Part shown: positions 8,419 to 36,046 of the stretch, in pieces
How the letters are laid out: the number at the start of each line of letters is the position of its first letter
Numbering within the stretch: position 1 is the stretch's first letter
Translations under genes and position numbers: made by a program
From: a virus
Lineage: Duplodnaviria > Heunggongvirae > Uroviricota > Caudoviricetes
Reading direction: 5' to 3' (one strand)
Length of the DNA stretch: 41,518 nt
IMG/VR virus record: IMGVR_UViG_2802429248_000002
Notes under the pieces: model-generated
The model's input: only the letters and a program-made list of their open reading frames with translations
Databases searched by the model: none
What the model was told of the DNA's origin: nothing

Positions 8419-8434
8419 CGGGCGGTGGCATTCG

Positions 8435-8460: not shown

Positions 8461-8475
8461 GTGACATGTCACGAC

Positions 8476-8889
8476 TTATAAAGATGACTGATATTTTACA
8501 ACTCTGTTCATGGCATCTTTTTTCACCGAGCTGATATCAGTTCTTATTTTGGCTTCGTCATTACTGTTTATCATGCTATTAACTTTTTGCACTGACATGC
8601 CGTTTCTTTCAGCCATTGCACATACAGCAGCATCGTATGAAGAACTCGCTGCGATGGATATCACCTTGTTACACTCAAACACAGCACCTTCAGCAATATC
8701 AGATGCCGATGATGCTGGCTTGGTATAAGTCTTGACGTAGTGATCAATACAACTATCCTTCGCCGTCTTGGCAAGAGAAAAATCCATTTTAACTTTGTCG
8801 CAATATGCCTTATCAACACCGTCATAAACATCATAGGATGTCGAGCAAGCGGATATCAAAAATACCGATAACAGCAATAATTCCTTCAT
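8476..8889 (-). CDS. Phage-encoded lipoprotein (moron), candidate superinfection-exclusion or surface factor
   Basis: 137 aa; signal peptide MKELLLLSVFLISAC with lipobox; six further Cys; gene looks AT-rich by eye; tacked on 9 bp after the stop of the large internal virion protein gene. Confidence 0.55.
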   Translation of the reverse strand: MKELLLLSVFLISACSTSYDVYDGVDKAYCDKVKMDFSLAKTAKDSCIDHYVKTYTKPASSASDIAEGAVFECNKVISIAASSSYDAAVCAMAERNGMSVQKVNSMINSNDEAKIRTDISSVKKDAMNRVVKYQSSL

Positions 8890-8898
8890 TGTTGTTCC

Positions 8899-11373
8899 TT
8901 ATTGCGGAGTGACATCCTGAGGTCGCCACCAGTATGTCTGGTTAAACTCTTTCTTCGAACGTTGCTCCATTTTACGCAAATAGCCTGGTGAAAAATACTC
9001 CTGCATCTGGTTAAAGATCATATGATCGAGAGCCGCCTTCAAGTACCAGAGATTCGCACCTGGCATCAGCCCCTTCCCCAGCTTAACCAGATCACCACCA
9101 GTCTGCTCACTCTTCCCTTCCACAGCATTTAGCGGTATGCCCTGAGCTATCTTCACTACGTCATCAACCAGACCAGCTACCGGGCCAAGCATCGACGCCA
9201 GCGCGCCGCTCCCGTACCTAGTGTGGTCAGAGAAAAGAAAATCACCGTACAACCCAGCCCCGCCACCTTTTAAAAATGCATTTATCCAGAATTTAACCAT
9301 GTGGTCACCGGTCATTTCCTTTGGATTTCTCCCATTAATAAGATCAGTAATCTGCATGGAAAGAGCACCAAGCATGGTTGTGCTTGCTAAAAACGTTGCT
9401 ATATATGCTGCACGCCCACCAGCAGACGGCATACCCATAGCGCGTGACCAGTGACGCATAACAACCGAGATAGGGAACGATTTAAACAGGAAAACACTTC
9501 TCGTTAATTCACCTTTCCATGTTCCACGCTGAAGACCAGACCCTACGAACATCTGCTCACGTGCGCCCGGTGTAATAACAGCCATATCAACTTCTTCAGT
9601 TACGGCACCGAGCAGTTTACGCATTGCCTCAAATTTCACGCGTTCAGGCTCACCAAGATGTTTAACTGCTGAATCAGGGATACGCATAATGCTTTCCGGT
9701 GTCAGCATCGTATTATTACCGTTCCCCCAGTCCTCCTGTTGCGCCAGCTTCCATACGCTCCAGTCTGTGTCAGTAATCCCTTTACTTTTCAGGATACGAA
9801 AATCAGAGTCATCGAGGCTACGAAGGTCTGGTGTCCGTGACACTACTTCTCCCAGGCTTCCCATCATGGTTACGCCATAGGCGCGCTTGTGCGCATCTGA
9901 CCATGCTGTAAGCCCACTGGCACGCATTACCGCCGTTGCCGCCCAACGAGACACAGACGGCCCCATATTATCCATCGCCCAGCGGTTAACGCTGCCAAGT
10001 AGAGATTCCATCGCCAGGCCAGCGCGGCGCGCCCGCGCAAGCTCAGTACGGTTCGTTGGGTCCATAGCTTCAAGCTGGTTGCGAAATAACTGGTTCATTG
10101 GAAGGTTGGTAACCTTCGCAGACAGATACATGGTTCCAAGATCAGAGAACGATGACAGCAACGCGGATCCGAGTCTGCTGGCAACCAGCCAGTTGCGGAT
10201 ATTGTCAGACCATCGCGCGATGTGCGGATTCGCTACAGGCTGTGTTTTTCCGGAAATAAAGTTGTACAAGTTCTCTGTTTTGTTCGCCAGACGCTCGACG
10301 CTACCGGTTTTACTCGGGTTAGCTGTTGCCGTTTCTGCCTTAACCTGATCAAGAAGGGAGCGGAAAACATGATCGGGGTTTGGACCATATGTTTCCACCA
10401 GAGCAATATCTTTACTGATACCTTCCAAGTGACCGACCATGATTTCCCATAGAGAGCGATCACCATAAAGTTGTTGATATTGGAGATAGGAATCTGCATC
10501 TTTGAAATGTATCTGTCGTGATGCATTACCACGGTTAGCACGTGCGCCGGAAATTCGCATTCCGGTATCAGTAAGCTTATTCAGCCCACCAGTAGCGATC
10601 GTGTTATAAGCCTCTCCAAGAAATGCAGACAACTCGGCATCGTTCATCAGTTGTCCATCGGCTCGGGTATAATATTTGCGATCCAGCTTACCTATAACAT
10701 CGCCAACCCACTTATCCTTTGATACCGCCCCAACCTTTTCCATAGAATGATGTTGAGGGATCCCCCAGTTTTCGAGATAGCCAATGTCCCCACCAGCATC
10801 ATTAAACCGGCGGCGCAGCAGCTCTGTAACTTCTCTCCACGCCTTAGCACCTTTTCTTGCTTTAGCATTGCCAGTATTTTGCCCCCGCATTTCATATACC
10901 AGGTCACGTACGCCCGCTTCATCTTCAAACAGACCAAAAAAGCGAGGATCAACTGCTTCGAATGCCTCCTGCAATTGACTCAATGCATAATCACGGGTGG
11001 CTTTTGTTCTGGATTCAACAGAGAGGAAATTAGATTTACCGTCTGCATTAAAAGCTATAGTACGGTTAAGAGCTCCAAGTTTCCCATCAGCCCCTTGATA
11101 GCTATTGATAAATTTATCCAATCTCTGACGCGCGGCTATAGTGAGAGCCACACGACGTTTCTTTAATGCCGCTTCTCGCTGTAATTCTTCAGATGCCAAT
11201 TGTGCTGCTCGATATAGCCGCTCTGATTCGGAAAGTTGTCTCCACGACATCGGGTCATCACGAGCAATGGAGCGCATATTTCGATAAATGCGGTCTTCAA
11301 TGTTCTGTATTTCTCGCGCCGTTAACGTGCGCTGCGCCGCCTGCTGGACCGCTTGTATACATTCCTGTCTCAT
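8899..11373 (-). CDS. Large internal virion (core/ejection) protein, gp16-like by position
   Basis: 824 aa, last large ORF of the internal-protein series preceding the tailspike module; assignment by size and synteny only. Confidence 0.5.
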   Translation of the reverse strand: MRQECIQAVQQAAQRTLTAREIQNIEDRIYRNMRSIARDDPMSWRQLSESERLYRAAQLASEELQREAALKKRRVALTIAARQRLDKFINSYQGADGKLGALNRTIAFNADGKSNFLSVESRTKATRDYALSQLQEAFEAVDPRFFGLFEDEAGVRDLVYEMRGQNTGNAKARKGAKAWREVTELLRRRFNDAGGDIGYLENWGIPQHHSMEKVGAVSKDKWVGDVIGKLDRKYYTRADGQLMNDAELSAFLGEAYNTIATGGLNKLTDTGMRISGARANRGNASRQIHFKDADSYLQYQQLYGDRSLWEIMVGHLEGISKDIALVETYGPNPDHVFRSLLDQVKAETATANPSKTGSVERLANKTENLYNFISGKTQPVANPHIARWSDNIRNWLVASRLGSALLSSFSDLGTMYLSAKVTNLPMNQLFRNQLEAMDPTNRTELARARRAGLAMESLLGSVNRWAMDNMGPSVSRWAATAVMRASGLTAWSDAHKRAYGVTMMGSLGEVVSRTPDLRSLDDSDFRILKSKGITDTDWSVWKLAQQEDWGNGNNTMLTPESIMRIPDSAVKHLGEPERVKFEAMRKLLGAVTEEVDMAVITPGAREQMFVGSGLQRGTWKGELTRSVFLFKSFPISVVMRHWSRAMGMPSAGGRAAYIATFLASTTMLGALSMQITDLINGRNPKEMTGDHMVKFWINAFLKGGGAGLYGDFLFSDHTRYGSGALASMLGPVAGLVDDVVKIAQGIPLNAVEGKSEQTGGDLVKLGKGLMPGANLWYLKAALDHMIFNQMQEYFSPGYLRKMEQRSKKEFNQTYWWRPQDVTPQ

Positions 11374-11378
11374 TTAAT

Positions 11379-13181
11379 TTAACCTCTCAAGAAACACGCC
11401 ACAGCGACATCAAACAGGCTGGAATCCTGTATTGCCTGCTCACTTTCCCTGTTCGCTTCATCCAGTACTTCACGCGCGCTGCGCGATTGTGGATTACCAT
11501 CATCATCCAGCACGGTGATTATCATGTCCGGATATTCAAGCAGCGAGTCTTCAGCTATACGCAGATCAATATCTCCTGCCGGATCTGCCATCATTTTTTG
11601 TTCTGTCTGTTGCAATATCTTACCGGGCTCAAAAGGAGCTACTTCGTCTGGCGTCCTGACCTCTGCTGTTTTATAGAATGAAACAGCCTGAGCATTAAGT
11701 TCACTTTCTGCCTGCTGTCTCCGAGCCAGTTCTGCTCGAGCTTCAAAAAACTGACCGCCAGGCTCATGCGGTGCCAACGCGTTACGGGAAAATTCCAGGC
11801 GTTCTTGTGCCTGCCGGATTCGTTGGTCAATATCCCGAAGTCTGGCCTGTTTATCTGATCGAGCACGAGACAAAGCTTTACCGCTACCGGTTGGCTCTTC
11901 TGCAAGAATTTGTGCGCGCTGTTCAGTGAGATTTTCAATAATTCGTTGGCTATTAGCGATTTCAGACTGGTAAACCTGTCTATCGCCACGAGGCAAAAGC
12001 TGCGCAGCCTGTTCTTCAAGCAACCGATTTTCGATAGCGCGCGCCGTTACTCCATCATCTACAGATGACAGAGCCTCATTAACTGCCTGAGACAGCAGAT
12101 TCTTGCGCCCAGGAATTTCACTGAAAGATGCAGACTCAACAATGCTGGCTACGTCTACAGGTCTCCCCTGGCTAACATCAGACATGGCTTTTCGCAGAGC
12201 CTGAATGTGCGAATTACGCGAAAGCACGTTGATCGGCACGCCGGGAGCAATATCAATTTCAGCATGATGAGCGGCATTCGCCGCCAGTGCAGCATCGACA
12301 TCAACTGGTGAAAAATTTGGTGCGCTTGTAGACTCGCCGCGAGAGTTAATAAATCTGCCGACACCACCAAACGCCACCCCAAGAACAGCATCAATAGCAA
12401 TTGCCTGTCGATCCAACACATCATACTGGTTAGCCATTTCGCTATAGCCACCATCACGAAGCGTTTTTGCAGTAAGCCCACGCTGTGCCATACCGAACGC
12501 AATATTTGTACCTGCGGCATAGGCAATATCTGGCGTTGCACGTACTGCTGTTGCTGCGGCGCGTCGCACTGAACTTTCACCCGTCCGCGCAAGCTGAGCC
12601 GCCACACCTTCCGCCAGCGCACCACCAGCACGTAACCCGAGGCTCATAGGGATCAGTGTTCCGGCACCAGCAGTAATACCCTGCACTAATCCCGCTTCCT
12701 GCGCCGCCCTGAAATCAACCCCCTGTGCTGTCAGCCGTTCAAACTCAGAAAAACCCTGTAGCGAAGTTACCGCCGCTGCACCTCCGACCGGACCACCGAG
12801 CGTTGTACCGACAACAGCCTGCCCGCCCATATCGAACAACCCATAAAGAACCTGCCCGGCGGTTCCGGTTGTCGCGGCATCAGGCGTCAGCCGCTTAACC
12901 TGCTGCTCTGCTAGTTTTCTCTGCTCGGCAATGTATGAAACTGAAGTATCATTGAGCGAGGTGTTTTCGTTAATAAACTGAGCAATCGGGGATACGATTT
13001 TATCCATCCCTGCCCATAGCAACTGATCTGGCTTTGCCACCAGCCCGGAGTACAAACCAGACAATGCCGCTCCTACAGCATTGTCGAAAAAACCAACATC
13101 GCTGTTAAAGCCCGCTGGATTTGATGCTGCTTCGTCAAGTTGCTGATTCTGGTTTACTGGATTAAGGCCAAAGTAACTCAT
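11379..13181 (-). CDS. Internal virion protein (Ala/Gly-rich), function unknown
   Basis: 600 aa; Ala/Gly-rich central region; synteny between the gp15-like and gp16-like ORFs. Confidence 0.5.
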   Translation of the reverse strand: MSYFGLNPVNQNQQLDEAASNPAGFNSDVGFFDNAVGAALSGLYSGLVAKPDQLLWAGMDKIVSPIAQFINENTSLNDTSVSYIAEQRKLAEQQVKRLTPDAATTGTAGQVLYGLFDMGGQAVVGTTLGGPVGGAAAVTSLQGFSEFERLTAQGVDFRAAQEAGLVQGITAGAGTLIPMSLGLRAGGALAEGVAAQLARTGESSVRRAAATAVRATPDIAYAAGTNIAFGMAQRGLTAKTLRDGGYSEMANQYDVLDRQAIAIDAVLGVAFGGVGRFINSRGESTSAPNFSPVDVDAALAANAAHHAEIDIAPGVPINVLSRNSHIQALRKAMSDVSQGRPVDVASIVESASFSEIPGRKNLLSQAVNEALSSVDDGVTARAIENRLLEEQAAQLLPRGDRQVYQSEIANSQRIIENLTEQRAQILAEEPTGSGKALSRARSDKQARLRDIDQRIRQAQERLEFSRNALAPHEPGGQFFEARAELARRQQAESELNAQAVSFYKTAEVRTPDEVAPFEPGKILQQTEQKMMADPAGDIDLRIAEDSLLEYPDMIITVLDDDGNPQSRSAREVLDEANRESEQAIQDSSLFDVAVACFLRG

Positions 13182-15691
13182 TGCGGAATATCTCCGGAGA
13201 ATCTCTGACGCTTCTGTGTCAGATCAAGAACAACAGGAGAACCATCATCTTTCAGCAGATAACCAGTACCAAGTTTCACCAGGTACTGACTATCGCCGTA
13301 ACTTTGCAAACCATACTGACCAGGCGGTGTTTTTATCCCGGTGCCGACAACTTGTTCATTCCAAGCCTGATTAACCTGCTTATCGAATTGCTCTGCAGAC
13401 ATTCCCCACGGCAAAAGGACATTCCCCATTCCGTTATAGTCATGCACGCCACCTGTAGCTACGTTAACAGCCTGTTTCCAGATATCATTGTCAATTTCGC
13501 CTGATACCACGCCTTTTTTCGCCATCACACCAGCGTAATAATCCTTTGCGATCTCGTATGCCATTGATGCGCCCTGAGCGTCACCAGCAAATGCATCCTT
13601 CACCATGTCAGAAAACTCAAGGCGAAGATCAGCATCTTTAGGCATCGGAATACCTTTCGCATCATCAGTACCTTTACGAGCCGCCGCGCCAGCAAGAATT
13701 GTCTGCGCAGCGGTTTCAGGAGACACGGAAACATCCGGATTAAACCAGTTTTTTTCTGCCAAAATACCACCAGGCTTATCCATCAGTATCCCGGCAACGG
13801 CAGCAGATGGAGCGTTGGCACTGATCTGCTGTAGTGCTGACATATACACCTGCCCACCACCAGTGCTCTGCCTGATGGTATCGAGATATGCTGCCTGTTG
13901 GGAAACTGGAGCATCACGAAAGAAAACACCGATCTGATTGGCCTCGTCTTTGGAAAAGAACGTCAGTGGAGTGCCATATGACTTAGCAAGGTCACTGACC
14001 TGAGCGGCACGCAAGGCAACGCTCTGTCCAAAGTTATCCTTATTGCTCATGTCGATAGGCTTTGCCTGTCCGGAGGCAAGAGAGAACTGCACAGGATCCG
14101 ACTGCCGCTGCTTTATCACCTGATTTGCAGCCGAAACAACGTTGTCATAAAGAGTTGCGCGTGCCGCATACCCCTCCCCTGTATCACCAGTATCCGGGCG
14201 TAATTGCTCAACATATGCTGTAATGCTGCTTGTCGGCATGTTGCGGAAAGAGCCTATATACTGTCCGGCGATCTGCGTATTCTTAAACTCGGTATATCGC
14301 AGGTTTCCTTCTCTGACTCCATAAGCTGCAATAAAATCATCCTCACCAGGTGGGTTAGGAAATTCAATGCCACGCATATACGCAGCCGTCGCATCGCGAA
14401 CCCGGCTGTCGAGCATCGTTTTATATTCAGCCTGCTGTTGTCTGGCTAGTGCATCAGTCTGTCGCAACACGCTGGCCTGATCTGATTCACTTAAAGCATC
14501 GAACCAGGCTACACCGGTATAACGTTTATTTTTTGTCGGTAGCTGAGAAAGCCCCAGCGCAGCACTAACACCTGCAGTTAACTGCTGATCACTGTATGGC
14601 TGGCTACCGTTTTCATGATGGATAATGGCTGCACAAAGCGCCTTCAGGGTATCAGGATTTGATGCATCGAGAGGCTCATCAGCAGAAACGCCAAGTTGTT
14701 CGCACACTGCTTTGATATACGACATAGTGTCATTTTTATCAGTAGGCGGTGCCCAGCGATTAATTATCTCGCTGACGGTATCAATACCCTGCCGCTGATA
14801 CGACATCAGGTTCCGCCCTAATGCACGAATACCGTGTTCAGGGGTTTCGAATTTGGCAAAGCGACCATCATCACCAGTCTGCCCAACCCACGGATTAGTT
14901 TTGCTGTATTCAAGATTGCCGGGGTTATTGTTGCGTATACCGCGGGTACGATCGGAAGAGCCACTATCTGCTACAGCACGGCGAGAACCAGCAGCAGTAT
15001 CGCTTAACTCGCCGTTTTGCTGTCTTACCTGAAGATAGTTTGCTCCAATAGCATTTTGAGCAGTTGCTTTTGCTGTTGCTTCTTTAAACTCGATTTTCTT
15101 GGCCTGGATTTGCTCGTCACTCCAGCCATGTGCAATGCCGTAATCCTCAATTTGCTGGAAAGTTTGCTTATTAGCCAATACGTATGCGGCGTTGTCGCCA
15201 TACAATGCTGCGGCATTTTTACCATTGTTCAGCAGCGTCGCCTGAAACTGGCCTTCTTCGTAGGCATTTATTTGCCCTATCTCGTGCCGCCCGGCCTGCG
15301 TAGTGAACTGAATACGCTGCTGCTGCGCCTGCTGCATGAAAGCATTACGAGCCTGTTCATCCGGCAGCGACATAGCCAGTTGTTCGACCTGAGCATCAAA
15401 CTGCTGCGTATACTCCTGACCTTTTCCAATAGCATTTTTCCCTTTCAGGTTAAGCAAACCTGTTTCAGGGTTATTCAGCAGATCGCTGCTTATCTGGCTT
15501 AAGCTAAGAGAAGCATCCTGAGCCATAGCAACATTCGCACGCTGTTTTGCCTGCGCAATAATACCTGCATATTGCTCTGCAACATCGCCAAGTACATCAC
15601 CGACATTTGGTGTCTGAAACGATGAGAATCCCTGCGTCGAAATCCCTCTGCTTTGAACCTGACGGCCCGATGTTGTTGGTACAACTGGCAT
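13178..15691 (-). CDS. Internal virion protein, gp15-like by position
   Basis: 837 aa; overlapping stop/start with neighbours; contains a GIRNNNPGNLEY...FAKFETPEHGIRAL segment that may be a cell-wall-acting domain (uncertain). Confidence 0.5.
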   Translation of the reverse strand: MPVVPTTSGRQVQSRGISTQGFSSFQTPNVGDVLGDVAEQYAGIIAQAKQRANVAMAQDASLSLSQISSDLLNNPETGLLNLKGKNAIGKGQEYTQQFDAQVEQLAMSLPDEQARNAFMQQAQQQRIQFTTQAGRHEIGQINAYEEGQFQATLLNNGKNAAALYGDNAAYVLANKQTFQQIEDYGIAHGWSDEQIQAKKIEFKEATAKATAQNAIGANYLQVRQQNGELSDTAAGSRRAVADSGSSDRTRGIRNNNPGNLEYSKTNPWVGQTGDDGRFAKFETPEHGIRALGRNLMSYQRQGIDTVSEIINRWAPPTDKNDTMSYIKAVCEQLGVSADEPLDASNPDTLKALCAAIIHHENGSQPYSDQQLTAGVSAALGLSQLPTKNKRYTGVAWFDALSESDQASVLRQTDALARQQQAEYKTMLDSRVRDATAAYMRGIEFPNPPGEDDFIAAYGVREGNLRYTEFKNTQIAGQYIGSFRNMPTSSITAYVEQLRPDTGDTGEGYAARATLYDNVVSAANQVIKQRQSDPVQFSLASGQAKPIDMSNKDNFGQSVALRAAQVSDLAKSYGTPLTFFSKDEANQIGVFFRDAPVSQQAAYLDTIRQSTGGGQVYMSALQQISANAPSAAVAGILMDKPGGILAEKNWFNPDVSVSPETAAQTILAGAAARKGTDDAKGIPMPKDADLRLEFSDMVKDAFAGDAQGASMAYEIAKDYYAGVMAKKGVVSGEIDNDIWKQAVNVATGGVHDYNGMGNVLLPWGMSAEQFDKQVNQAWNEQVVGTGIKTPPGQYGLQSYGDSQYLVKLGTGYLLKDDGSPVVLDLTQKRQRFSGDIPQ

Positions 15692-15703
15692 CTTATTATC
15701 CCC

Positions 15704-16243
15704 TTATCGACCGGTTGGAGTGCCAACAGCAGCAGAAATCGGCGCAGCTTTCTGAGAGAACGGGCTCCACGTTCCGCCGCCCATCTGGTATGCACCGTAT
15801 GCTTTTAGTGGTGCCGTTAACAAAGTGCTGGTCATCGATGATTTAGCAGCCGACTGAGCAGCAGCCCCCTGTGCCTGAGCATTCATTCCCTGAACCTGAT
15901 ACCCATATGCCTCACGCTGAGCATTATTCACTGTCGTTAACGCATCAAGAGTGCCGAACTGAGCATTATCCGCAAAAACGTCAAGAGCTGTTCCGCTACT
16001 TAATTCCGCACCGGTAGCCCCCATAGTGGCCGCCGCAGTGCCTGAGCGTTGACGCATTTCACGACGACGCTGATCCGCTTCAATATTCCCACGATTGATT
16101 GAATCCTGTGCCTGAGCTTCAGCAATTTCAGCATTCCGATCAGCTATGGCTGACTGGTATTTTGCCTGCTTGCTCTGGCTGTACATTGACGCGGCTGTGG
16201 ATGCCACTGTGACGGCAACCAAAGCGATGGCTGGGTTACACAT
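15704..16243 (-). CDS. Internal virion protein, gp14-like by position
   Basis: 179 aa, Ala/Gln-rich, N-terminal hydrophobic segment; synteny. Confidence 0.45.
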   Translation of the reverse strand: MCNPAIALVAVTVASTAASMYSQSKQAKYQSAIADRNAEIAEAQAQDSINRGNIEADQRRREMRQRSGTAAATMGATGAELSSGTALDVFADNAQFGTLDALTTVNNAQREAYGYQVQGMNAQAQGAAAQSAAKSSMTSTLLTAPLKAYGAYQMGGGTWSPFSQKAAPISAAVGTPTGR

Positions 16244-16707
16244 TATTTTCTCTCCATGTGAAATCTGTGGAAATTAAGACCAAGAGCACCATAAGGCGCG
16301 GCTTCTTCAAGCCTGAATCCAAGCCAGTGCAGCCATGCTTTGGCAACATGGTTTCGCTCGTCGACGTAGTTTTCCAGGCGCGGATAAACTGCCAGCATCT
16401 GCTGCAATACAGGGCGGCAGTGGCGAAGAAATGTCTTCTGATATTTTTCAATACGGCTGGTTCCTACCAGCCAGGGCGTACCATTGCCACCGATCATTGA
16501 CGCCGGAGATACGCCAAACATGGTTACCAGTTCTCCGTTCGCAAATCCTGACCAGGCCATAGTCGCAGTACGCAGACCAACACGCAGCGCATCTTCGGTA
16601 GTCATCAGCGATACCGCATACAGTTCGTCAATATCAGCCTGACGAACATCCGGCAAAATCATCTGAAGATGCTCTTCGGTAGCGGGAATAATTTGAACGT
16701 CGATCAT
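16243..16707 (-). CDS. Hypothetical virion-associated protein (gp13-like position)
   Basis: 154 aa ORF coupled by start/stop overlap between the tail tubular B-like and gp14-like genes. Confidence 0.4.
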   Translation of the reverse strand: MIDVQIIPATEEHLQMILPDVRQADIDELYAVSLMTTEDALRVGLRTATMAWSGFANGELVTMFGVSPASMIGGNGTPWLVGTSRIEKYQKTFLRHCRPVLQQMLAVYPRLENYVDERNHVAKAWLHWLGFRLEEAAPYGALGLNFHRFHMERK

Positions 16708-19178: not shown

Positions 19179-19786
19179 CAGGACAACCTCGCAATGGTAA
19201 ACTCATCAACCGGTGGCTGTGGTTCCTGTGATTCATTCTGGCTATGCGAGCCAGCACTAAGAATCACGCGATTGTACATATTGAGGGCAAACGTACCGAG
19301 GTCTGCATTCCCAGTCAGCGCCATGTTAATAGCTGCCGCAAGACGCCAGGCCAACGCCTCCATAAAAATGGCATCAAACATGTTCACATCTGAAACGCGA
19401 GAGACATACTTGAGCCATGCCTGCGGCTGGTCTGTGTAGATCAACTTTCCTGTTCCGTTGGTGTCTGCACCAACTTCGTACTGAACGCGCATTGCTGCTG
19501 TTGGATTGCGTACACCAGGAAGCATAATTTCAGTAATGCGCAGACAATCGGACGGGTACTGGTACGCATATTCCCAGTCAGGCGGTGGATTGTTCGTATC
19601 TGCAAGCGCCACGCGTTTGGTAGCAAAGTTCCAGTCAAAATCAGAAAGCACAGCATCACGGCAGGCCTCAAAGTGCAGCGAACATTCCCCTGCTTCCTTG
19701 CTGGCTTCCGTCAGGCTGTTAATGCTGCGGCTGTTGCCAATATTGGACAGCGCACGATTACAGATCTCTACTACAGAGGCCATCAC
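19178..19786 (-). CDS. Tail tubular protein A-like (adaptor)
   Basis: 202 aa; N-terminal pattern (CNRALSNIGNSRSINSLTEAS) resembles T7 gp11 (memory); synteny. Confidence 0.5.
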   Translation of the reverse strand: MMASVVEICNRALSNIGNSRSINSLTEASKEAGECSLHFEACRDAVLSDFDWNFATKRVALADTNNPPPDWEYAYQYPSDCLRITEIMLPGVRNPTAAMRVQYEVGADTNGTGKLIYTDQPQAWLKYVSRVSDVNMFDAIFMEALAWRLAAAINMALTGNADLGTFALNMYNRVILSAGSHSQNESQEPQPPVDEFTIARLS

Positions 19787-20112: not shown

Positions 20113-20156
20113 TCCTGCAATAAAGGGGCCGAAGCCCCTTGTCGGATTCGCGAGGC

Positions 20157-20501: not shown

Positions 20502-20502
20502 C

Positions 20503-20940: not shown

Positions 20941-20991
20941 CTTCTTTCTCCATTAGTGGGTCTGTTACGACCCACAGGTTAATAACAGGCG

Positions 20992-21984
20992 TTACACCAC
21001 GCGGGCTTCTGTTTCCAGAAGCGCATCAGTTTCACGGATTGGTACACCACGGAATGAAGTCCACCACTCGCCTTCTGTCTCTTTTACGCTGATAGCCAGA
21101 GATGTTTTCTCCAGAGACTGCAGATCAAGAGCCTGGCCTACAGTGCGGTTCATGTAGAACACCGGGCGGCCCATGCCACGGTTTGGAATGCGATGTAGTG
21201 CTTTAACCATCAACTTCGCAATATTTGCGGCAGAGGATGGTTCTGAAAGATTGCTGACATCGATGTTTGCAATGCGAACAACATAACGCCAGTCACGCAG
21301 AGCAAGTCCGTTATCCCATTTGTAATGGGTGCGATAGCCTTCGTACTTGCCGCCATTAGCATCTTCCAGTGTCACCTGGCCTTTATCTTCCATCTGGATG
21401 CCAGCCTTCTGCCCTTTCGGGAAGATGCCATGCACGGTGTTTTCGCCCCACACCACTAACCAGATTGAGGTGTTATCTGTACCCGTGCCACCAGCATCAA
21501 TGATGTTCTGAGCATTACCCGCAGACAGGCTGGAATAGCGGGAGGACAGTCCCATAAACTGCTGAGGGTTAACGCTGGAATCACCATAAAACAGCGTCTG
21601 CGCCATCTGCTGATTCATCGCTTCAATAAATGCGCGGTCTTCAGACAGGCGGAATTCAGCGGTATTGCCGTTCAGATCAGCCAGTGACTTATCGACTTCA
21701 GCATAGGTTTCCAGCATGCCAACGGAATCGGTTACCTGCACTGTGGTTGATTTGCTTGGCTGTACGCCATAGTTCAGCAAACGCCAGGTAGCTGAAGGTA
21801 AACCAGAACGAATGGTGGTTCGGTGTCCGGTAGGAAGGTTCCCTTCGACAAAAGGCATATCCTGAAGGATCGGGTTAGTTTGACCGAGAAGCTCGATAAT
21901 CTTATCGACTTTCCCGTTTGGATCGACGCGCTTACCCCAGTCAGCCAGCGTTAGCGCAGTTAAGCCTTTAACAGCCATTGTCAT
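20992..21984 (-). CDS. Major capsid protein
   Basis: 330 aa; follows the scaffold gene; size and composition typical of an HK97-fold capsid protein of epsilon15-type podoviruses (memory). Confidence 0.7.
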   Translation of the reverse strand: MTMAVKGLTALTLADWGKRVDPNGKVDKIIELLGQTNPILQDMPFVEGNLPTGHRTTIRSGLPSATWRLLNYGVQPSKSTTVQVTDSVGMLETYAEVDKSLADLNGNTAEFRLSEDRAFIEAMNQQMAQTLFYGDSSVNPQQFMGLSSRYSSLSAGNAQNIIDAGGTGTDNTSIWLVVWGENTVHGIFPKGQKAGIQMEDKGQVTLEDANGGKYEGYRTHYKWDNGLALRDWRYVVRIANIDVSNLSEPSSAANIAKLMVKALHRIPNRGMGRPVFYMNRTVGQALDLQSLEKTSLAISVKETEGEWWTSFRGVPIRETDALLETEARVV

Positions 21985-21992
21985 TTCCTCTC

Positions 21993-22694
21993 TTATTTGC
22001 CATAGAGCACTTCGGCCGCACTACGCTGGCCTTCATTACCACCGGTGACCATGCCATCTTCAGACATCGCCTTTCCGATTTTCACGAACGTTTTGACCAG
22101 ATCAGGGTGATTACCCAGCCCGGTGGTGTTCAGATATTCTTTGAGTTCAGGTGTCCCGAACTGGTCAAGCGCACGCTGTGCGGCGCTAAGGTTAGAAATC
22201 AACTTGTCGCCACCGATTTCTTTGTCAGCTTTTACATCCGCAGCCCACTGCTCGGTTGTTTTCTGCCAGGCTTCTGCCTGGCGCTGCTGAACACCTGCCA
22301 GAATCTTCGGATAAGCATCAACCAGCTTTTGCGCTTGCTCGTTGGTCAGGTTTAGTTCTCGCGCCACCGGCTCGAATTCCTTCAACGCTTCTGTATCCAG
22401 CTCTACGCCTTCGGCAGCCTGAAACTCGTACTTCTCAGGCGCACCCTCAGGTTTATCGCCGTCCTTTTTTTCATCCTGCTTATCGTTTTCAGGCTTTTTG
22501 TCATCAGCAGGTTTATCGCCATCAGCAACAGGTTGTGGCTTATCACCTTCCTGTTGTGATGGATCACCAACTGGAGCAGGGTTATCACCTGCAGGCGCTG
22601 ACGGTTCTGACGCAGCCGGAGCTGCTCCACCATCGACTGGTTGCTCATTGCAAAGACGGCGATACAGCAAACGCTCAAATAAATTCATGATCAC
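21993..22694 (-). CDS. Scaffolding protein
   Basis: 233 aa; acidic Pro/Asp/Lys-rich low-complexity N-terminal half, helical C-terminal half; between portal and capsid genes. Confidence 0.6.
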   Translation of the reverse strand: MIMNLFERLLYRRLCNEQPVDGGAAPAASEPSAPAGDNPAPVGDPSQQEGDKPQPVADGDKPADDKKPENDKQDEKKDGDKPEGAPEKYEFQAAEGVELDTEALKEFEPVARELNLTNEQAQKLVDAYPKILAGVQQRQAEAWQKTTEQWAADVKADKEIGGDKLISNLSAAQRALDQFGTPELKEYLNTTGLGNHPDLVKTFVKIGKAMSEDGMVTGGNEGQRSAAEVLYGK

Positions 22695-22987
22695 TCCTGT
22701 TCACTGGCCTCTTTGGCCATCTTCAAATACTGTTCAGGGCAATGCGCCATAACGCGCTGAAACAGTTCCAGCGCCAGATTGCGTTGCCCCTCATTAAATG
22801 CCATTGCCATAGCGTCCATCGGTGAGATAGCGGAAAACACACGGCCTTTCTCCAGCACCGACCAGACAACGCGACGCCCCTGTTCACTGCTCATGACAAA
22901 GCGAATGTCATCAATTTCACGCTGCGCCATGTCACGTTGCTTACGGGCGTTTTCTTCTTTCAGTTGATCGTCTTCGTAATCTGTCAT
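22691..22987 (-). CDS. Hypothetical protein between portal and scaffold
   Basis: 98 aa, charged and helical; overlaps the portal stop. Confidence 0.45.
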   Translation of the reverse strand: MTDYEDDQLKEENARKQRDMAQREIDDIRFVMSSEQGRRVVWSVLEKGRVFSAISPMDAMAMAFNEGQRNLALELFQRVMAHCPEQYLKMAKEASEQE

Positions 22988-24663
22988 TGTGATTGCCCAC
23001 CCTGACCACTAACTGCATTCGCCATAGCTGACAAAACACTCGGATCCGAAGTTTTAGCTTCGCTTAGCGTCTTGGCACCCTGTGCCGCCGCCATCCCCAT
23101 CGCCATCATTTGTTGCTGCTGTTGCTGCTGTGCCCGTTGCTGGCGAGCCTGCTCAACCTGTTCCTGCGGAACAATGACGGTTGGAGACACTCCGGACATA
23201 TCAGCGAATGCATCGATCGCCTGATCAACGTTGAGTTTGTCGAGAGCTTCTGGTTTCGCTTGCGCAAGTTGACCAATGAAGTTAACCGTGGACGCCAGAC
23301 TGGACAGGCCGATAGACTTCTGCGCCTGAGCCATGACGGAAATGTATTCGACCTTCAGGGGCATACCTTCCATCGCGTCAGGCGGTGGCGGCAGCATGTT
23401 TTTACGCACCATCATCGAGAAAGCGCGGTCAATGAGAGGGTTAAGACATTCGTCGTTCAGACGCTCCAGAACCGGCCCCAACATCAGAAGCTTTTCTTCT
23501 TTCATTTCGATCACTGCTTCAACAGGCATCGAGCGGGTATTGATGTTCTGCAACATCATGAACAGATCGACAAAGTAGGCGCTGTTAATGATTTGACGGG
23601 TGTCCTGAATGTCTGCTACCAAATCTGCTGTACTGGGGTTAACCAGATAAGCAGGCCTGAAGCCATCCTGACCAGTAATCTGATCGATATACGTGATGTC
23701 GCCAGGAAGAAGGGAGGCGCGCTGATTCTTGAGGGAAGTCGGAGCAACCATCGGCGGATTGGTGGCTTTATCAATCAACTGCGACTTGCGCTTCTGGAGA
23801 AGCTGCAATGCCTTAACAGGTCCAAGCGCCAGCATACCAGGGCATGATGATCCATAAACATCTTCGCCGTTAACTTCCCAGCGCGGAGCCATAATTGGAA
23901 ACTCATCGAATCCGGACTCACGCAACAACTTGTCGTTATCGCCACCAACCTCGTAATAAACCGATTTGAATGGCTTGTTCTTGCTATCCAGCTTCGATGT
24001 ATCGCGGTCAATGTTCGGGTAAACCGAATGCATCACTTCAATCCACTTCTCGTAGGTGCCGCTTTCCCACATGCTTTTTACGGATTCGCTGACGTTATTT
24101 AGCCCGAACTCCTGAACAAGCTGACGAACAGTCATAGAGAACTTGCGAAAACAGGTGTCCACACTGCCACGAGGTGAGTTAGCCAGGTAGTAACTGCCTA
24201 TCGGGAATGGCATTGTGCGAATGATGTCCTCGTCATCCTCCAGCACCGCCATTGCACCAGTGCTGTATGTGCCGAGGCTTCCGTATAACTGCGGAAGAGA
24301 CTGGTAGAGATTCGACTTATTGAACATATCGTTCATGCGGTTCTGCACCGCCTCAAGCCACAACTTAACAGGGCCATAATCCATCATTTCAGGATCTGGC
24401 GTAGCCAGGCGAAACCACGGACGCGCGGGGCTTGTGATGCCTGACATCATGCCGCTGGCGAGAGTGCGCGCCGCCATAGTCCCGGTCGAATCAATAATGC
24501 GTGTATTGCGTCGATCGTTACGGTTGACCTCAGAAGTCAGAAAGCGGGAACCACGCGGGTTGATGTAATCACTCAACTCGCGCCAGTGCGGCTCGAACGA
24601 CTGACGCTCGCTTTCAAGTTGTGCGAACTGTTTGTTCAATCGCTCTTTAGTTGTTTCCGCCAT
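22984..24663 (-). CDS. Portal protein
   Basis: 559 aa; first large gene downstream of terminase in the operon; C-terminal poly-Gln/Ala tail. Confidence 0.75.
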   Translation of the reverse strand: MAETTKERLNKQFAQLESERQSFEPHWRELSDYINPRGSRFLTSEVNRNDRRNTRIIDSTGTMAARTLASGMMSGITSPARPWFRLATPDPEMMDYGPVKLWLEAVQNRMNDMFNKSNLYQSLPQLYGSLGTYSTGAMAVLEDDEDIIRTMPFPIGSYYLANSPRGSVDTCFRKFSMTVRQLVQEFGLNNVSESVKSMWESGTYEKWIEVMHSVYPNIDRDTSKLDSKNKPFKSVYYEVGGDNDKLLRESGFDEFPIMAPRWEVNGEDVYGSSCPGMLALGPVKALQLLQKRKSQLIDKATNPPMVAPTSLKNQRASLLPGDITYIDQITGQDGFRPAYLVNPSTADLVADIQDTRQIINSAYFVDLFMMLQNINTRSMPVEAVIEMKEEKLLMLGPVLERLNDECLNPLIDRAFSMMVRKNMLPPPPDAMEGMPLKVEYISVMAQAQKSIGLSSLASTVNFIGQLAQAKPEALDKLNVDQAIDAFADMSGVSPTVIVPQEQVEQARQQRAQQQQQQQMMAMGMAAAQGAKTLSEAKTSDPSVLSAMANAVSGQGGQSQ

Positions 24664-24677
24664 TTCAATGACTCCGG

Positions 24678-24884
24678 TTACTGACCAAGCAGCGTTTTAC
24701 CGCTGGTATTAGCGGTTGATGTGTCGCCCTGAGAACCGGTGAGCAGCGTAGAACTACGACCAGCAGCAGCGCGACGGCGACGAGTTTCTTCGTCGCGGGC
24801 ATCAACAACGGCGGCATCCTGCTCCTGTGGTGCTGCCTGAACTTCTGGTGTTGCAGGCACTGATGGTGAGCTACCCATGCACAT
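24678..24884 (-). CDS. Small disordered protein upstream of portal (hypothetical)
   Basis: 68 aa; GGAG 9 nt upstream of ATG; Ala/Thr/Ser-rich. The competing 24665-24904 frame starts at TTG and is disfavoured. Confidence 0.35.
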   Translation of the reverse strand: MCMGSSPSVPATPEVQAAPQEQDAAVVDARDEETRRRRAAAGRSSTLLTGSQGDTSTANTSGKTLLGQ

Positions 24885-24952
24885 ATCAATGACTCCGTAC
24901 GCAATTAAACTATTACCAATTTAACCACATATGATTTATTTATCGTAGATAG

Positions 24953-24989
24953 TTGACATTTAACGCACAAATTATTACCTTTCAGGTAA
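24953..24989 (+). promoter_or_regulatory. Sigma70-like promoter (TTGACA-17-TACCTT) overlapped by operator palindrome TTACCTTTCAGGTAA
   Basis: -35 TTGACA 24953-24958, 17-bp spacer, -10 TACCTT 24976-24981; palindrome 24975-24989 covers the -10 and start site. Points rightward into the leader and tRNA-Arg. Confidence 0.5.
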
Positions 24990-25311
24990 CCAAAGAGTTC
25001 ATTCCGGTTACTAACCTGACTGGCTTGTCGTTAAATTGAACAGGTGGAGTGAGCTTTTATTTTGAGCAGTACGGCGTATGGCACATGCGCCGGTAGCGGT
25101 CTGGATACGTTTAAGGGGCTCCCTCCCTTGCTCGGGCAAACGAACCAGGTAGCCGGAATGTGCAAGTCGAGCGGTTTTATTCCGCGCACGGGGATTCACC
25201 ATCCCGGCGATTCGGTGTGACGCCTCGGAAGAGACGAGGGTACAACGATGAGAGCATTTATGGAGCCGCGACAAAGTGTGGCGCCTTAACAGGCTAAGTG
25301 CTCTCAGCGTT

Positions 25312-25388
25312 GTGGCATTAGCTCAGTTGGACAGAGCAACCGCCTTCTAAGCGGTTGGTCGCAGGTTCGAATCCTGCATGCCACGCCA
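25312..25388 (+). tRNA. tRNA-Arg (anticodon UCU), phage-encoded
   Basis: Cloverleaf readable by eye: acceptor GTGGCAT/ATGCCAC, D-arm GCTC-AGTTGGACA-GAGC, anticodon stem ACCGC/GCGGT with loop CTTCTAA, variable TGGTC, T-arm GCAGG-TTCGAAT-CCTGC, discriminator G, encoded CCA. Confidence 0.9.
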
Positions 25389-25431
25389 GAATCACGCCTA
25401 AGGACCGTGATGCCAGAAGTTCCAGGGGCTT

Positions 25432-25473
25432 GGCGGTGATGGTTTCCCTTGAAGGGCTATCACCGCCCTTTTT
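25432..25473 (+). terminator. Intrinsic terminator downstream of tRNA-Arg
   Basis: Stem GGCGGTGAT (25432-25440) / ATCACCGCC (25459-25467) followed by CTTTTT. Confidence 0.6.
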
Positions 25474-25550
25474 ACAGCAGGACGCCATTGCGATGACTTC
25501 ATGCTGTAAACCAGTACAGCCACGGAAGGCATAACTCATTGCTTCCAGTT

Positions 25551-25576
25551 CGCCCGGTTCGCCGGGCATTTTTTTG
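25551..25576 (+). terminator. Second intrinsic terminator (TTCG tetraloop hairpin plus T7 run)
   Basis: GCCCGG-TTCG-CCGGGC hairpin (25552-25567) followed by seven T. Confidence 0.6.
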
Positions 25577-25591
25577 CTTGATGACCGCAAA

Positions 25592-25606
25592 TTACCTTAA
25601 AGGTAT
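25592..25606. promoter_or_regulatory. Operator palindrome TTACCTTAAAGGTAT overlapping the RBS/-10 region of the cargo gene
   Basis: Ends 4 nt before ATG 25611; a consensus TATAAT hexamer (25604-25609) overlaps its right arm. Confidence 0.45.
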
Positions 25607-25610
25607 AATC

Positions 25611-26429
25611 ATGAAAAACTTCAAGGTAATTAGCATGTTTGAATCGTTTAAAGAGCTGTTTTTATCTACTGCCAATACTGCCGTGAATCGAGCCAAAAAC
25701 CCTGTGCTTGGTGCTTTTGTTATGTCCTGGTGCGCCTTCAACTGGAAATCAATTCTTTATCTATTTTTTAGCAAATCAAACATAATAGATAAAATTTCAT
25801 ATATCTCAGATAACAGCACATGGAAAACTGTTATGTTTTATCCATGCTTATCTGTAATTGCTATCTGCTGCCTATTACCATGGGTAAACAATATCATTAA
25901 CGTATGGCAAGCAAAGCCTCTTGATAATAATGACTCAATCGAAAATCACCTGAAGGCAAGAAAAATCCAGCGTGAAACCAGACTGCAGAGGTTATTGGCT
26001 AAAAAAGATGTTACATACGACAAAGTTAAGACTGGCGCGGAAAAAGACATCCAAGAGATGAAAGAAGAGATTATTCGATCAAAGAATAGTATGGGGGAAT
26101 TGACTGCTGAGTTGAAAGCTAAAGATGACGAATTGAGATCCGCCAGTGCTCAGTTAGCAGCTCTAAATCATTCATTAAAAGAGATATCGGAAACTCTTGG
26201 AAGAATGAATGAGGCATATAAGACCCTCCAAAATGATTTCGACGAATACAAACTCAAATACCCTGAAAAATCTCAAATAAAAAGCCTTGCACTTGGCAAC
26301 GGCCAAACAATTAGCAACTTTTTGGAGCAACACAACTTATCCGGATTAAAATCTGGTAAGCCAAACGTTTTTAATAACTTTGGTGTTCTATCTGGATTAT
26401 CAGGTTTCGAGGATAAAAATAAAGACTAA
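25611..26429 (+). CDS. Membrane protein with C-terminal coiled-coil, function unknown (candidate abortive-infection/exclusion factor)
   Basis: Start taken at MKNFKV (ATG 25611). 272 aa; two hydrophobic helices near the N-terminus, then a long charged heptad-like region (..ELTAELKAKDDELRSASAQLAALNHSLKEISETLGRMNEAYKTLQNDFDEYK..). AT-rich by eye; opposite strand to the flanking terminase and portal genes. Confidence 0.55.
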   Translation: MKNFKVISMFESFKELFLSTANTAVNRAKNPVLGAFVMSWCAFNWKSILYLFFSKSNIIDKISYISDNSTWKTVMFYPCLSVIAICCLLPWVNNIINVWQAKPLDNNDSIENHLKARKIQRETRLQRLLAKKDVTYDKVKTGAEKDIQEMKEEIIRSKNSMGELTAELKAKDDELRSASAQLAALNHSLKEISETLGRMNEAYKTLQNDFDEYKLKYPEKSQIKSLALGNGQTISNFLEQHNLSGLKSGKPNVFNNFGVLSGLSGFEDKNKD

Positions 26430-27901
26430 GCATATGGATCGTACTCGGTAAGCGCCTTGCCTTGCTGGTTCTGCTGCCCGGGAAGTCGCAGGCGCTTTGA
26501 CACCGGGAAAGCAAACGTCAGCAGTAGCGCATCGCCTTTACCAGGCGAACGCCCAAGCCGCTCCTTGATATCTTCCTTCGGTTCGATAACGATTTTACCG
26601 TCCACTCGAACTTTGTACTCTGCCGCCGACAGATCGTCCGCTGTTTCCTGGTCATCCAGCATCCCGCCCAGCCTCAGCCATGTCTTGCATGAGTTGAACA
26701 TCTCCCCACGCTTGTTGAGCATCTGCGGGTCAGTAGACGCGCCACCGAACGGAACAAGTTGCCATGTACGACCCCAGCCGTCACCGATTGACTTCAAACC
26801 GGTTCCGTAACCGAAGTCGATGAACACCGCGTCAGCCTGATACTGGTCTTCAAAGTCAGCGATACGCTTCGCCATAATCAGATCGTCGGTAGTCTTGTTG
26901 CCAGTCCACAGCACCTTACTGTGTAGCCCCTGCCGCAGGTATATCACCGCGTCATCAACGCCTGAATATGCCGGGTCAACACCGATTATCACCGGAGCAT
27001 GCGCCACCTGCGCAGCGGTTACCACCCGTTTCATTGCCTCATCAGTAAGACCGGTAGGGATAAACTGCAATTCAGATGCATCAGGGAATATGCCGCGCAC
27101 ACGGATTTTAACGAAGTCGCTGTCTTCCCCGTAGTCATCAACCCATTTCTGCAACTGCTGTTTGTTAGTGCCTTCCACCGTTCGGCTGTCAATCTGCGCA
27201 GTTTTCCAGCGGTGTTTATATTTGCGGAAACATTCGCGGAAACGTCCGGTGTTACGTGTAGGGTTTCCGAACGCCACCCAGATAATCTCAGTGTCTTCGT
27301 CCGTTAGCGCACCCTCGGCAACTTCCCACACCAGATCCGCAATGTTCGACGCTTCATCAAATACCACGATGATGCGTTTACGCTCGTTGTGTAGTCCGGC
27401 GAATGCCTCAGTGTTGTGCTCAGACCAAGGGATTGCGTCAGCTCGCCACCGCTTGTCGTGCCCAGGATCATTGCTGTACATCGCGGTAGCGGTACAGGTA
27501 AACCAGTCTTTCGTGATAGCAAGGTTCGACCACTTGATAATTTCCGGCCAGGTCTTAGTTCGTAGCTGGTTGTCGGTGTTGGCGGTCACCACGACCTTAC
27601 AATCCTCGCAAGTGGACATGCCCCAGTTGATCAGCATTGAGATGAATGCGGATTTACCAATACCGTGACCAGAAGCGCGTGCCAGCATAAGCGGCTGATA
27701 GCGCGTCTCTGGATTCTGCAGGTGATCACGTATCTCTCGGAACGCATCAGCCTGCCACTGACGTGGGCCGGTGGCATGTGCCAGTTCAGTCCCCTCTTCC
27801 CCCCACGGGAACGCATAGAGGGCATAGCCAAGCGGATCGTGAGTGAACCCTGCAATATCCTCGATCAACTGCTCTTCAGGAGATAACGCTGTATCTGTCA
27901 C
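26426..27901 (-). CDS. Terminase large subunit
   Basis: 491 aa; N-terminal P-loop-like ATPase region (GHGIGKS), acidic nuclease-like C-terminal half; overlaps the small-subunit stop; precedes portal. Confidence 0.8.
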   Translation of the reverse strand: MTDTALSPEEQLIEDIAGFTHDPLGYALYAFPWGEEGTELAHATGPRQWQADAFREIRDHLQNPETRYQPLMLARASGHGIGKSAFISMLINWGMSTCEDCKVVVTANTDNQLRTKTWPEIIKWSNLAITKDWFTCTATAMYSNDPGHDKRWRADAIPWSEHNTEAFAGLHNERKRIIVVFDEASNIADLVWEVAEGALTDEDTEIIWVAFGNPTRNTGRFRECFRKYKHRWKTAQIDSRTVEGTNKQQLQKWVDDYGEDSDFVKIRVRGIFPDASELQFIPTGLTDEAMKRVVTAAQVAHAPVIIGVDPAYSGVDDAVIYLRQGLHSKVLWTGNKTTDDLIMAKRIADFEDQYQADAVFIDFGYGTGLKSIGDGWGRTWQLVPFGGASTDPQMLNKRGEMFNSCKTWLRLGGMLDDQETADDLSAAEYKVRVDGKIVIEPKEDIKERLGRSPGKGDALLLTFAFPVSKRLRLPGQQNQQGKALTEYDPYA

Positions 27902-28530
27902 TGATTACCATCCTGACGTTCTTTGAGTCGCTTCCTGGCTGCTGCTATGCGATCAGCAATTGTCACATTCACATTAACATCCAGACGTTCTTTGAACGCG
28001 TTAACGTCGACGTGCTTACCGATGAGCTCGAGGTTTTTCACCTTGTCGGGCCATTTCACCTTCTTCAGGATATGCTCGACATCCTCAACAGAGAGATCCG
28101 CCTCGCCATTCTCTTTTTGCAGGGAAGCCTGGGTTGTCTTGATGGTAGCGATATCCATAGCACTGAGAGAGGTACGCCAGACCTTCGGCCATTCAGCGAT
28201 CGGCTTCATCCCGCCGTCATCGTTCAGTATATCCAGCACGTCCATCTGGTCGATCTCCACCAGGCGCATGAGAACGTAATCAGCACTGACGCGCATTCGT
28301 TTGTTGCGCTCCTCCATCAACTCGGCAATCCGTTTTTTAATGCGTTCATCGCGCATCATGACACTGGCTTTAACTGCCGCTGTATTTGGGGAGAATCCTG
28401 CGTTAATCGCTGCCTGAGTCTGGTTTTCAGGCGTTTTGATGTATGACTGGCAATAAGCCTCCTGCATTGCTGTTAGTGGCTTAAATTGCGTTGATTTGCG
28501 TTTATAGGTTTTAGGTTCAGCAGGCATCAT
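27898..28530 (-). CDS. Terminase small subunit
   Basis: Start taken at MMPAEP (28530), because the longer track ORF would run through an upstream terminator hairpin. Basic N-terminal region, coupled to the large subunit. Confidence 0.55.
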   Translation of the reverse strand: MMPAEPKTYKRKSTQFKPLTAMQEAYCQSYIKTPENQTQAAINAGFSPNTAAVKASVMMRDERIKKRIAELMEERNKRMRVSADYVLMRLVEIDQMDVLDILNDDGGMKPIAEWPKVWRTSLSAMDIATIKTTQASLQKENGEADLSVEDVEHILKKVKWPDKVKNLELIGKHVDVNAFKERLDVNVNVTIADRIAAARKRLKERQDGNQ

Positions 28531-28572
28531 AACCACCGTGGTAATAGTTACCGTTGTGGTAATAGTACCATG

Positions 28573-28598
28573 CAAAATAAAGCCGCCATAGTTGGCGG
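28573..28598 (-). terminator. Intrinsic terminator-like hairpin upstream of the terminase small-subunit gene
   Basis: GCCGCC-ATAGTT-GGCGGC (28581-28598) with AAAATAAA on the plus strand, so TTTATTTT follows the hairpin on the minus strand. Confidence 0.45.
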
Positions 28599-28648
28599 CA
28601 GTATTCAAAACCCGTCAAATTCATCATGCATAATCTACTCGTGACATG

Positions 28649-28885
28649 TCACACTATTAATTTCGTTTCATGCCAGCCTTTAGTCACCCAGCATTGCGAG
28701 TCACCATTACACGGGCATGAATTAACTGGAACTCTCTCGCCGCACTTACCGCAACGTTTTCTGCTGATCGATTTTATACGCCCGCGCACACGTGCATCAT
28801 CCTGGCGGATCAGCAGCGCGATGTACTCGGCCATTTCATAGGGATCGCGACCAGGGCGCCGGGCGGCGCAGTTCCGCGCCAGCAT
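28649..28885 (-). CDS. Small Cys-rich (zinc-ribbon-like) protein upstream of the terminase operon, possible late-gene regulator
   Basis: Start uncertain: ATG 28885 has AGGAG 8 nt upstream, while the track ORF extends to a GTG at 28996. C-terminus RKRCGKCGERVPVNSCPCNGDSQCW. Confidence 0.35.
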   Translation of the reverse strand: MLARNCAARRPGRDPYEMAEYIALLIRQDDARVRGRIKSISRKRCGKCGERVPVNSCPCNGDSQCWVTKGWHETKLIV

Positions 28886-36034: not shown

Positions 36035-36046
36035 TTGCCTACTCGA

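Follow-up and report, generated by a model that had tools for sequence, protein, structure and literature searches.

The 41,518-nucleotide (nt) stretch of DNA analyzed here (IMG/VR record IMGVR_UViG_2802429248_000002, hereafter the window), which by its sequence is an epsilon15/phiV10-like (Uetakevirus) prophage, contains the exact 12-bp palindrome GTGACATGTCAC in two copies, at 8461–8472 (site 1) and 28641–28652 (site 2), and this raises the question of what the repeated element is and which protein recognizes it. As pointed out in the initial annotation, site 2 overlaps the stop of a small gene encoding a Cys-rich protein (the TGA is at 28649–28651); this protein belongs to the family of epsilon15 gp49, and the palindrome and the gp49-family gene are considered together below. 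Both copies of the palindrome have been recovered by exact search, as previously described, and no third exact copy is found in the window. Their identity extends to 15 bp in inverted orientation (TGTGACATGTCACGA at site 1, TCGTGACATGTCACA at site 2). When up to two mismatches are allowed, a single extra match appears at 22924, probably by chance.

The window contains 11 perfect 12-bp palindromes, and GTGACATGTCAC alone is present twice. Two matches to it were obtained in none of 100 dinucleotide shuffles of the window, while any repeated 12-bp palindrome was seen in 2.7% of 1500 first-order Markov simulations. The significance of the repeat in the window alone is thus moderate; it is suggestive, and the matter is decided by comparative data. 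The earlier statement that such a repeat is unlikely by chance is therefore retained in a modified form: the window by itself yields p of about 0.03, and it is the conservation of the sites and the spacer control (see below) that exclude chance.

For comparison we used epsilon15 and phiV10, as well as IMG/VR samples of 80 terS loci, 80 site-1 loci and 80 gp49-centered loci (1.3 Mb). Three exact copies are observed in epsilon15: at 39612, on the gp49 stop and 22 nt before the annotated terminator; at 2142, just past the terL terminator; and at 19517, where it covers the gp18 stop, with the late-operon terminator following directly. Exact copies in phiV10 are located at 2262 (after terL) and 19493 (the late-operon end). 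The phiV10 copy at the gp49 stop has one mismatch (GTGACATGTTAC) and is divided between the record ends (1–8 and 39101–39104), as the GenBank record is cut inside the palindrome, right after the p55 stop, which hides the site from view in the linear sequence. In the IMG/VR samples, the site 2 12-mer by the gp49 stop is exact in 71 out of 80 terS loci and has one mismatch in five more, even where both flanks have diverged, and the site 1 12-mer is exact in 75 out of 80 loci, where it is accompanied by four unrelated 5′ cassettes. The gp49-centered loci contain 137 motif matches, compared to approximately one expected by chance, with 74 of them at the stop codon, three just past it, and 55 after terL. 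Hence the equivalent positions in epsilon15, phiV10 and most IMG/VR loci do keep the sites, a check proposed in the initial annotation, and the 12-mer is to be regarded as a conserved cis-element and not a chance match. Epsilon15-like copies have a hairpin with a T-run within 0–41 nt, in the direction of the gene ending there.

The third copy, found directly after terL in 55 out of 80 loci, is missing from the window; in relatives that have it, a terminator, the 12-mer, and a small variable gene on the opposite strand come after terL. The post-terL region, 24905–26429, contains no 12-mer; it holds a 296-amino acid (aa) open reading frame (ORF) on the plus strand (25539–26429, PHROG 4780, unknown function) and the tRNA-Arg(tct) gene at 25312–25388. 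The window has lost the terL copy, which was replaced by a different cassette and a tRNA gene. Two IMG/VR relatives deviate at site 2: one (L200) has lost the 12-mer in a deletion that also takes the 3′ end of gp49 and some of the leader, and the other (L219) has a different gp49 C-terminus, no motif at the stop, and three copies at –8.3, +5.2 and +5.8 kb.

A tblastn search with the gp49-family protein identified homologues in unrelated phages, with a motif of the same kind alongside. The general form of this motif is GTGAC-NN-GTCAC, the arms being invariant and the two central bases typical of each lineage. Pectobacterium myovirus ZF40, the protein of which is 63–68% identical, has three copies of TGTGACATGTCACA, located 2 nt after the gene, inside gp08, and inside a cII-like gene. 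N15 and phiKO2 (33–39% identity) have GTGACTGGTCAC on the stop codon, and the stop-codon motif is present in all 49 N15-like loci, with the TG center (GTGACTGGTCAC) in 48 and the GG center (GTGACGGGTCAC) in one. Most N15-like loci also contain an identical second copy 4–7 kb upstream of the gene (in N15 at 33237, inside repA (gene 37), approximately 620 bp in), and many N15-like phages have a third copy, GTGACC[AC]GTCAC, approximately 9–10 kb upstream. In P2-like Yersinia phages the motif is on the stop codon in 48 out of 56 loci, with GTGACGCGTCAC in 46, and in four more loci it lies 9 nt downstream, the stop having moved. Vibrio phage K233 has three copies with AC or GC centers, one of which precedes the terS ATG by 19 nt. 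The homologue from IncN plasmids has the variant GTGAC-A-GTCAC (GTGACAGTCAC) in two places, inside the ORF and 24 nt ahead of its ATG. In the IncN plasmid pLR-33_1 (NZ_AP027524.1; locus L359, 3890–4258) this 114-aa homologue is encoded just past stbABC, in the leading region, and the in-ORF copy of GTGACAGTCAC encodes the predicted ribbon-helix-helix strand (VTVT). Further, approximately 650 conjugative plasmid records have a partial match to the protein. ArdK was considered as the IncN homologue and ruled out, as it is a member of the TrfB family.

The spacer control demonstrates how specific this arrangement is: in 4.26 Mb of fetched loci the arms separated by 2 bp occur 533 times, and spacers of 0, 1, 3, 4, 5, and 6 bp, 0–3 times each. 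The sites of N15, Vibrio, and IncN adjoin the ribosome-binding site of the downstream gene, and among the copies examined across the lineages none is in an obvious activator position. Across these lineages the motif accompanies the gp49-family gene and not the structural module. The initial annotation had suggested that the two sites bracket the virion-assembly operon; this does not hold as an organizing principle, given the third copy after terL in 55 out of 80 loci and the copies elsewhere in ZF40, N15-like, P2-like, and Vibrio phages, and the bracketing of the structural block is incidental. Instead, gene and site form a portable module, with a site on the gene’s own stop in several lineages and extra copies scattered.

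Since the motif accompanies the gene in IncN plasmids as well as in five phage backbones unrelated to one another, the Cys-rich gp49-family protein is the best candidate binder, and the earlier suggestion of regulator binding sites, with this protein as a possible binder, gains support from the same comparison. We consider it highly probable that the gp49-family protein binds the motif. The 112-aa protein of the window is a homologue of epsilon15 gp49, phiV10 p55, and N15 gp46, and belongs to PHROG 536, labeled “transcriptional regulator.” A basic N-terminus and a strand-helix-helix pattern recur in eight diverse members, as do four invariant cysteines constituting a C-terminal Cys4 motif, and the same architecture is retained in divergent members from Serratia, Rahnella, and Shewanella. 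The predicted fold is beta-alpha-alpha, that is, ribbon-helix-helix. For the PHROG 536 family approximately 200 clusters at 50% identity were found, spread over epsilon15-like, N15-like, P2-like, ZF40, and Vibrio phages, as well as hundreds of conjugative plasmid records. Profile searches of PDB sequences yielded chance matches only, with no sequence relative of known structure, and nothing useful on N15 gp46 was found in the literature. If the binding is as we infer, it provides a DNA target, and hence a testable function, for this widespread uncharacterized family, and accounts for three sharply conserved islands at Uetakevirus mosaic joints, which are unmarked in published annotations.

The gp49-family gene of the window occupies 28649–28987 on the minus strand, its GTG start at 28987 being placed by homology to 112-aa relatives. 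Site 2, on its TGA stop, is approximately 110 nt upstream of the terS start, and is followed, in this order, by a hairpin, two repressor-type operators, and the terS start codon. The terminator-like hairpin (GCCGCCAACTATGGCGGC with the tail TTTATTTTGC, 28572–28599, minus strand), located 41 nt downstream of site 2, is the probable end of the early-right operon and has a terminator annotation in epsilon15. The operators (TTACC-N5-GGTAA, of the immunity-repressor type by epsilon15 annotation and sequence) are at 28530–28562, between the terminator and the start codon of terS. The terS gene itself (terminase small subunit, Pfam Terminase_2; 27898–28530, minus strand) is the first one in the late operon; its probable ATG at 28530, read from the sequence and the epsilon15 annotation, is in frame with the program-listed TTG at 28608 (ORF 27898–28608).

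The late operon runs on the minus strand from terS to the gene for an 824-aa virion protein (8899–11373), with a cassette ORF (8476–8889, minus strand) coming last. This variable ORF encodes 137 aa with a lipoprotein-type signal peptide (PHROG 8691), and unrelated genes take its place in relatives. Its 3′ end adjoins site 1, which lies 3 nt past the stop of this final ORF and touches a hairpin resembling an intrinsic terminator (AGGCCGCAAAAGCGGCCT, 8460–8443, with a T-rich tail at 8442–8433; 8433–8460 in total, minus strand), which ends the late operon and is annotated as a terminator in phiV10 and epsilon15. Each of the two site-linked terminators (8460–8443 and 28599–28582, with their tails) consists of a G+C-rich hairpin followed by a T-run. 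The one at site 1 faces the convergent Bro-N antirepressor gene (7579–8418). The previous description of site 1 as lying past a terminator is hence correct only as seen from this plus-strand gene; along the late operon the site precedes the terminator.

The best explanation overall, which as a whole we advance tentatively and at somewhat below an even chance, is that the 12-mers are conserved sites for the predicted ribbon-helix-helix and Cys4 protein encoded immediately upstream of site 2, in itself the highly probable part, and that the bound protein acts on transcription. Each palindrome would be bound by a protein dimer, and the bound protein would obstruct RNA polymerase passing or starting there, thus serving as a repressor, roadblock, or insulator. 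In epsilon15-like phages it may back up the intrinsic terminators between operons, so that three segments would be kept apart: the early-right operon; terS–terL with the opposite-strand cassette; and the late-operon end facing the convergent antirepressor gene. A roadblock or insulator output of binding, suggested by the positions of the sites, has in our estimate somewhat less than an even chance of being correct; obstruction of RNA polymerase at operon junctions is the simplest unifying model.

Several observations weigh against this explanation. The IMG/VR loci are closely kin and cannot be counted as independent observations, the truly independent evidence coming from about six lineages. 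The link with terminators is confined to epsilon15-like phages, as copies in N15 and ZF40 are in genes or by ribosome-binding sites, and a roadblock on the regulator’s own stop codon is of no obvious benefit. The half-site centers are 7 bp apart, which is unusually close, and the spacer of 1 bp at the IncN homologue, compared to 2 bp in phages, is odd for a rigid dimer. The structure model has a moderate predicted local distance difference test score (pLDDT 75), and in the model of the monomer the beta-strand fails to form; no Pfam or NCBIfam family matches the window protein or the eight diverse members. Finally, no paper containing the 12-mer and no description of the element were found in the searchable literature.

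The sites coincide with mosaic breakpoints, as had been suggested for verification in the initial annotation. Clustering of the flanks yielded four unrelated 5′ cassettes at site 1 and at least three variants beyond its hairpin. The terL site has a single, conserved class of terminator to one side, and the sequences to its other side fall into at least 11 unrelated classes; those 3′ of site 2 fall into two main classes, with one variant in addition. The variable DNA begins 0–1 nt from the motif. Hairpins of the terL site show compensatory changes, while the 12-mer is invariant; site 1 with its hairpin constitutes a conserved island of approximately 30 bp, variable on both sides; and the homology of the window to phage records breaks at approximately 8430 and 8895. 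We explain the breakpoints at the sites by selection that would keep the site and terminator islands intact while the neighboring cassettes are swapped, and the joints are better explained by such selection on the site than by site-driven recombination. A dedicated recombination function, which had been listed as an option, is not supported, as no recombinase is associated with the motif. An attC-like cassette site does not agree with the data either: the motif is at one end of each variable cassette, and there is no recombinase gene adjacent.

Accordingly, we consider it very unlikely that the 12-mer and the terminator are a recombination linker or boundary, kept as short homology or target for cassette exchange with no dedicated binding protein. 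Temperate-phage mosaic-joint linkers resemble our case in that the motif stands exactly at the junctions of conserved and variable DNA, at site 1, the terL site, and site 2. The motif, however, is kept well outside any single phage group and goes with one particular protein gene, and the linker does not explain why the same arms are found by gp49 homologues in unrelated phages and plasmids, inside N15 repA, and in ZF40 genes; besides, efficient homologous exchange needs more than 12 bp. More can be said for a late-promoter element of the Q type, still an improbable candidate, in which gp49, encoded at the position of lambda Q, would bind a palindrome lying in a promoter with GTGACA as the –35 box and let polymerase through the terminator 40 nt further on into terS and the late genes. 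Indeed, as in the lambda Q system, with its Q-binding element (QBE) and the PR′–tR′ arrangement, the gp49-family gene closes the early-right operon and immediately precedes the late operon, and the epsilon15-like site is on a promoter-like sequence followed shortly by a terminator. The window has a weak sigma-70-like match, GTGACA-18-CATGAT (28623–28652, minus strand), with the palindrome as –35, and by manual reading the spacing is kept in the epsilon15 counterpart, GTGACA-17-TAAATT. It is not kept, however, in other site-2 variants, nor in N15, P2-like, and ZF40 phages; no promoter accompanies site 1 or the copy after terL, and extra copies are found at operon ends and inside genes. The protein shows no similarity to the Q families (Pfam), N15 has its own Q-like late activator, gp40, and the repressor operators beyond the terminator, next to terS, suggest a separate late promoter under direct repressor control. 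Least probable of all is binding of the sites by a host protein, whether MatP or a different one, or a chance origin of the repeat in the window. It is true that the arms are those of matS and that the window alone is only moderately significant, but the conservation together with the spacer control leaves no place for chance, and a host factor would not account for the strict co-occurrence with a phage gene, nor for the spacer and center typical of each lineage. Moreover, true matS sites are avoided by prophages (PMC3603311).

The resemblance to MatP and matS deserves consideration in its own right. It suggests an architectural system in which the protein would bridge, condense, or position phage and plasmid DNA or meet host MukBEF or MatP, with no control of transcription; we regard this as unlikely, and the resemblance as a lead. 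The half-sites are identical to those of matS (GTGAC[AG]N[TC]GTCAC), sharing the 5-bp inverted arms GTGAC...GTCAC, and the 12-mer is the Escherichia coli consensus matS, GTGACATTGTCAC, less one central base. In hmmsearch the family profile falls on the ribbon-helix-helix segment of MatP in the correct register (2.6 bits, E 0.006, single target). As in the MatP system, a ribbon-helix-helix domain, here predicted, follows a basic stretch, and replicons have multiple sites, kilobases apart, that avoid promoters and are often within genes. The named hosts, Escherichia, Salmonella, Klebsiella, Yersinia, Serratia, Pectobacterium, Vibrio, Aeromonas, and Shewanella, all belong to the clade bearing MatP and MukBEF, and the host range coincides with that clade. 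No true matS was found in 4.26 Mb of phage loci, and a 50-kb sample of the K-12 Ter region has two true matS and no 12-mer; prophages have been reported to avoid true matS (PMC3603311), and the phage loci without matS agree with this. On the other side, the phage spacer differs from that of matS by one base pair, 2 bp compared to 3: the 13-bp form GTGAC-RNY-GTCAC was not found, as the spacer is 2 in all 533 instances and never 3, and true matS is absent from the window. Homology to MatP is not significant (hhalign probability 0.1–0.2%, no Pfam MatP match), and hhalign, hmmsearch, and Pfam taken together do not place the 112-aa protein with its Cys4 C-terminus among MatP homologues; the four-helix bundle and coiled coil of MatP are missing, with the Cys4 domain instead. 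P2-like phages with one site only show that bridging is not general. The gp49-family genes, moreover, belong to phages and plasmids, and one of the sites is on or beside the gene itself. Based on these comparisons, we do not assign the gp49-family protein to the MatP family. Still, the half-site identity raises the question of whether mobile elements are copying or sidestepping the Ter-organizing system of the host. A more specific version, improbable in our opinion, is that temperate phages and conjugative plasmids of MatP- and MukBEF-bearing gamma-proteobacteria carry their own minimal MatP-like system, made up of the ribbon-helix-helix and Cys4 protein and of “matS-minus-one” sites with the arms of matS, marking or organizing element DNA and not regulating genes; in that case the spacer might have been shortened so that host MatP ignores the sites, and the system might unload or evade MukBEF-type structural maintenance of chromosomes (SMC) complexes or position DNA.

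Returning to the gp49-family protein as a binder that obstructs RNA polymerase, among its closest known parallels are ribbon-helix-helix repressors such as Arc, Mnt, CopG, and MetJ and the antitoxins MazE and ParD, with which it shares the predicted beta-alpha-alpha fold, small size, and a short palindromic target. The IncN homologue even has its site at the classical auto-operator position upstream of the gene. It differs from them in having no Pfam family match and in the extra Cys4 domain, and the phage site is at the 3′ end of the gene, in genes, or by terminators, and not at its own promoter.

The Cro-like protein, mentioned in the initial annotation as another possible binder, can be set aside, since the operator of the repressor-type proteins, TTACC-N5-GGTAA, is unlike the 12-mer. 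This operator, annotated as repressor sites in epsilon15, is present in the window in 15 copies, compared to 0.8 expected, at positions 6238, 7358, 7451, 24975, 25592, 28530, 28548, 32942, 33004, and 34950–36122. Copies are located directly upstream of terS, the gp3-like gene, the antirepressor gene, and the tailspike region, and hence the immunity repressor seems to control late promoters directly.

Other candidates have been rejected as well. The consensus sequences of CRP, LexA, and other host factors differ from the motif in spacing and arms. For late promoters of the P2 Ogr or P1 Lpa type, the TTA observed 3–4 nt past the motif corresponds to reverse-complement stops of opposite-strand genes, and there is no conserved –10 box. 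An RNA hairpin is considered unlikely, as all five arm positions are conserved even though a 2-nt loop is impossible, and single-base variants break the pairing; no Rfam family is found at the sites. An HNH endonuclease or a role at cos or pac was dismissed because the protein lacks an HNH motif and, in N15 and P2-like phages, is encoded far away from the terminase genes.

Two more observations concern the DNA beyond site 1. At the start of the Bro-N antirepressor gene, Rfam families are identified on the plus strand, isrK at 7502–7578 and C4 antisense RNA at 7597–7683, and the locus resembles the RNA-controlled antirepressor modules of P1/P7; at site 1 it converges with the late operon. Between this module and the tailspike gene there is a 242-aa ORF (6609–7337, minus strand, PHROG 6762) with C-terminal matches to the endonuclease VII, Lar-like, and HNH zinc-finger families.

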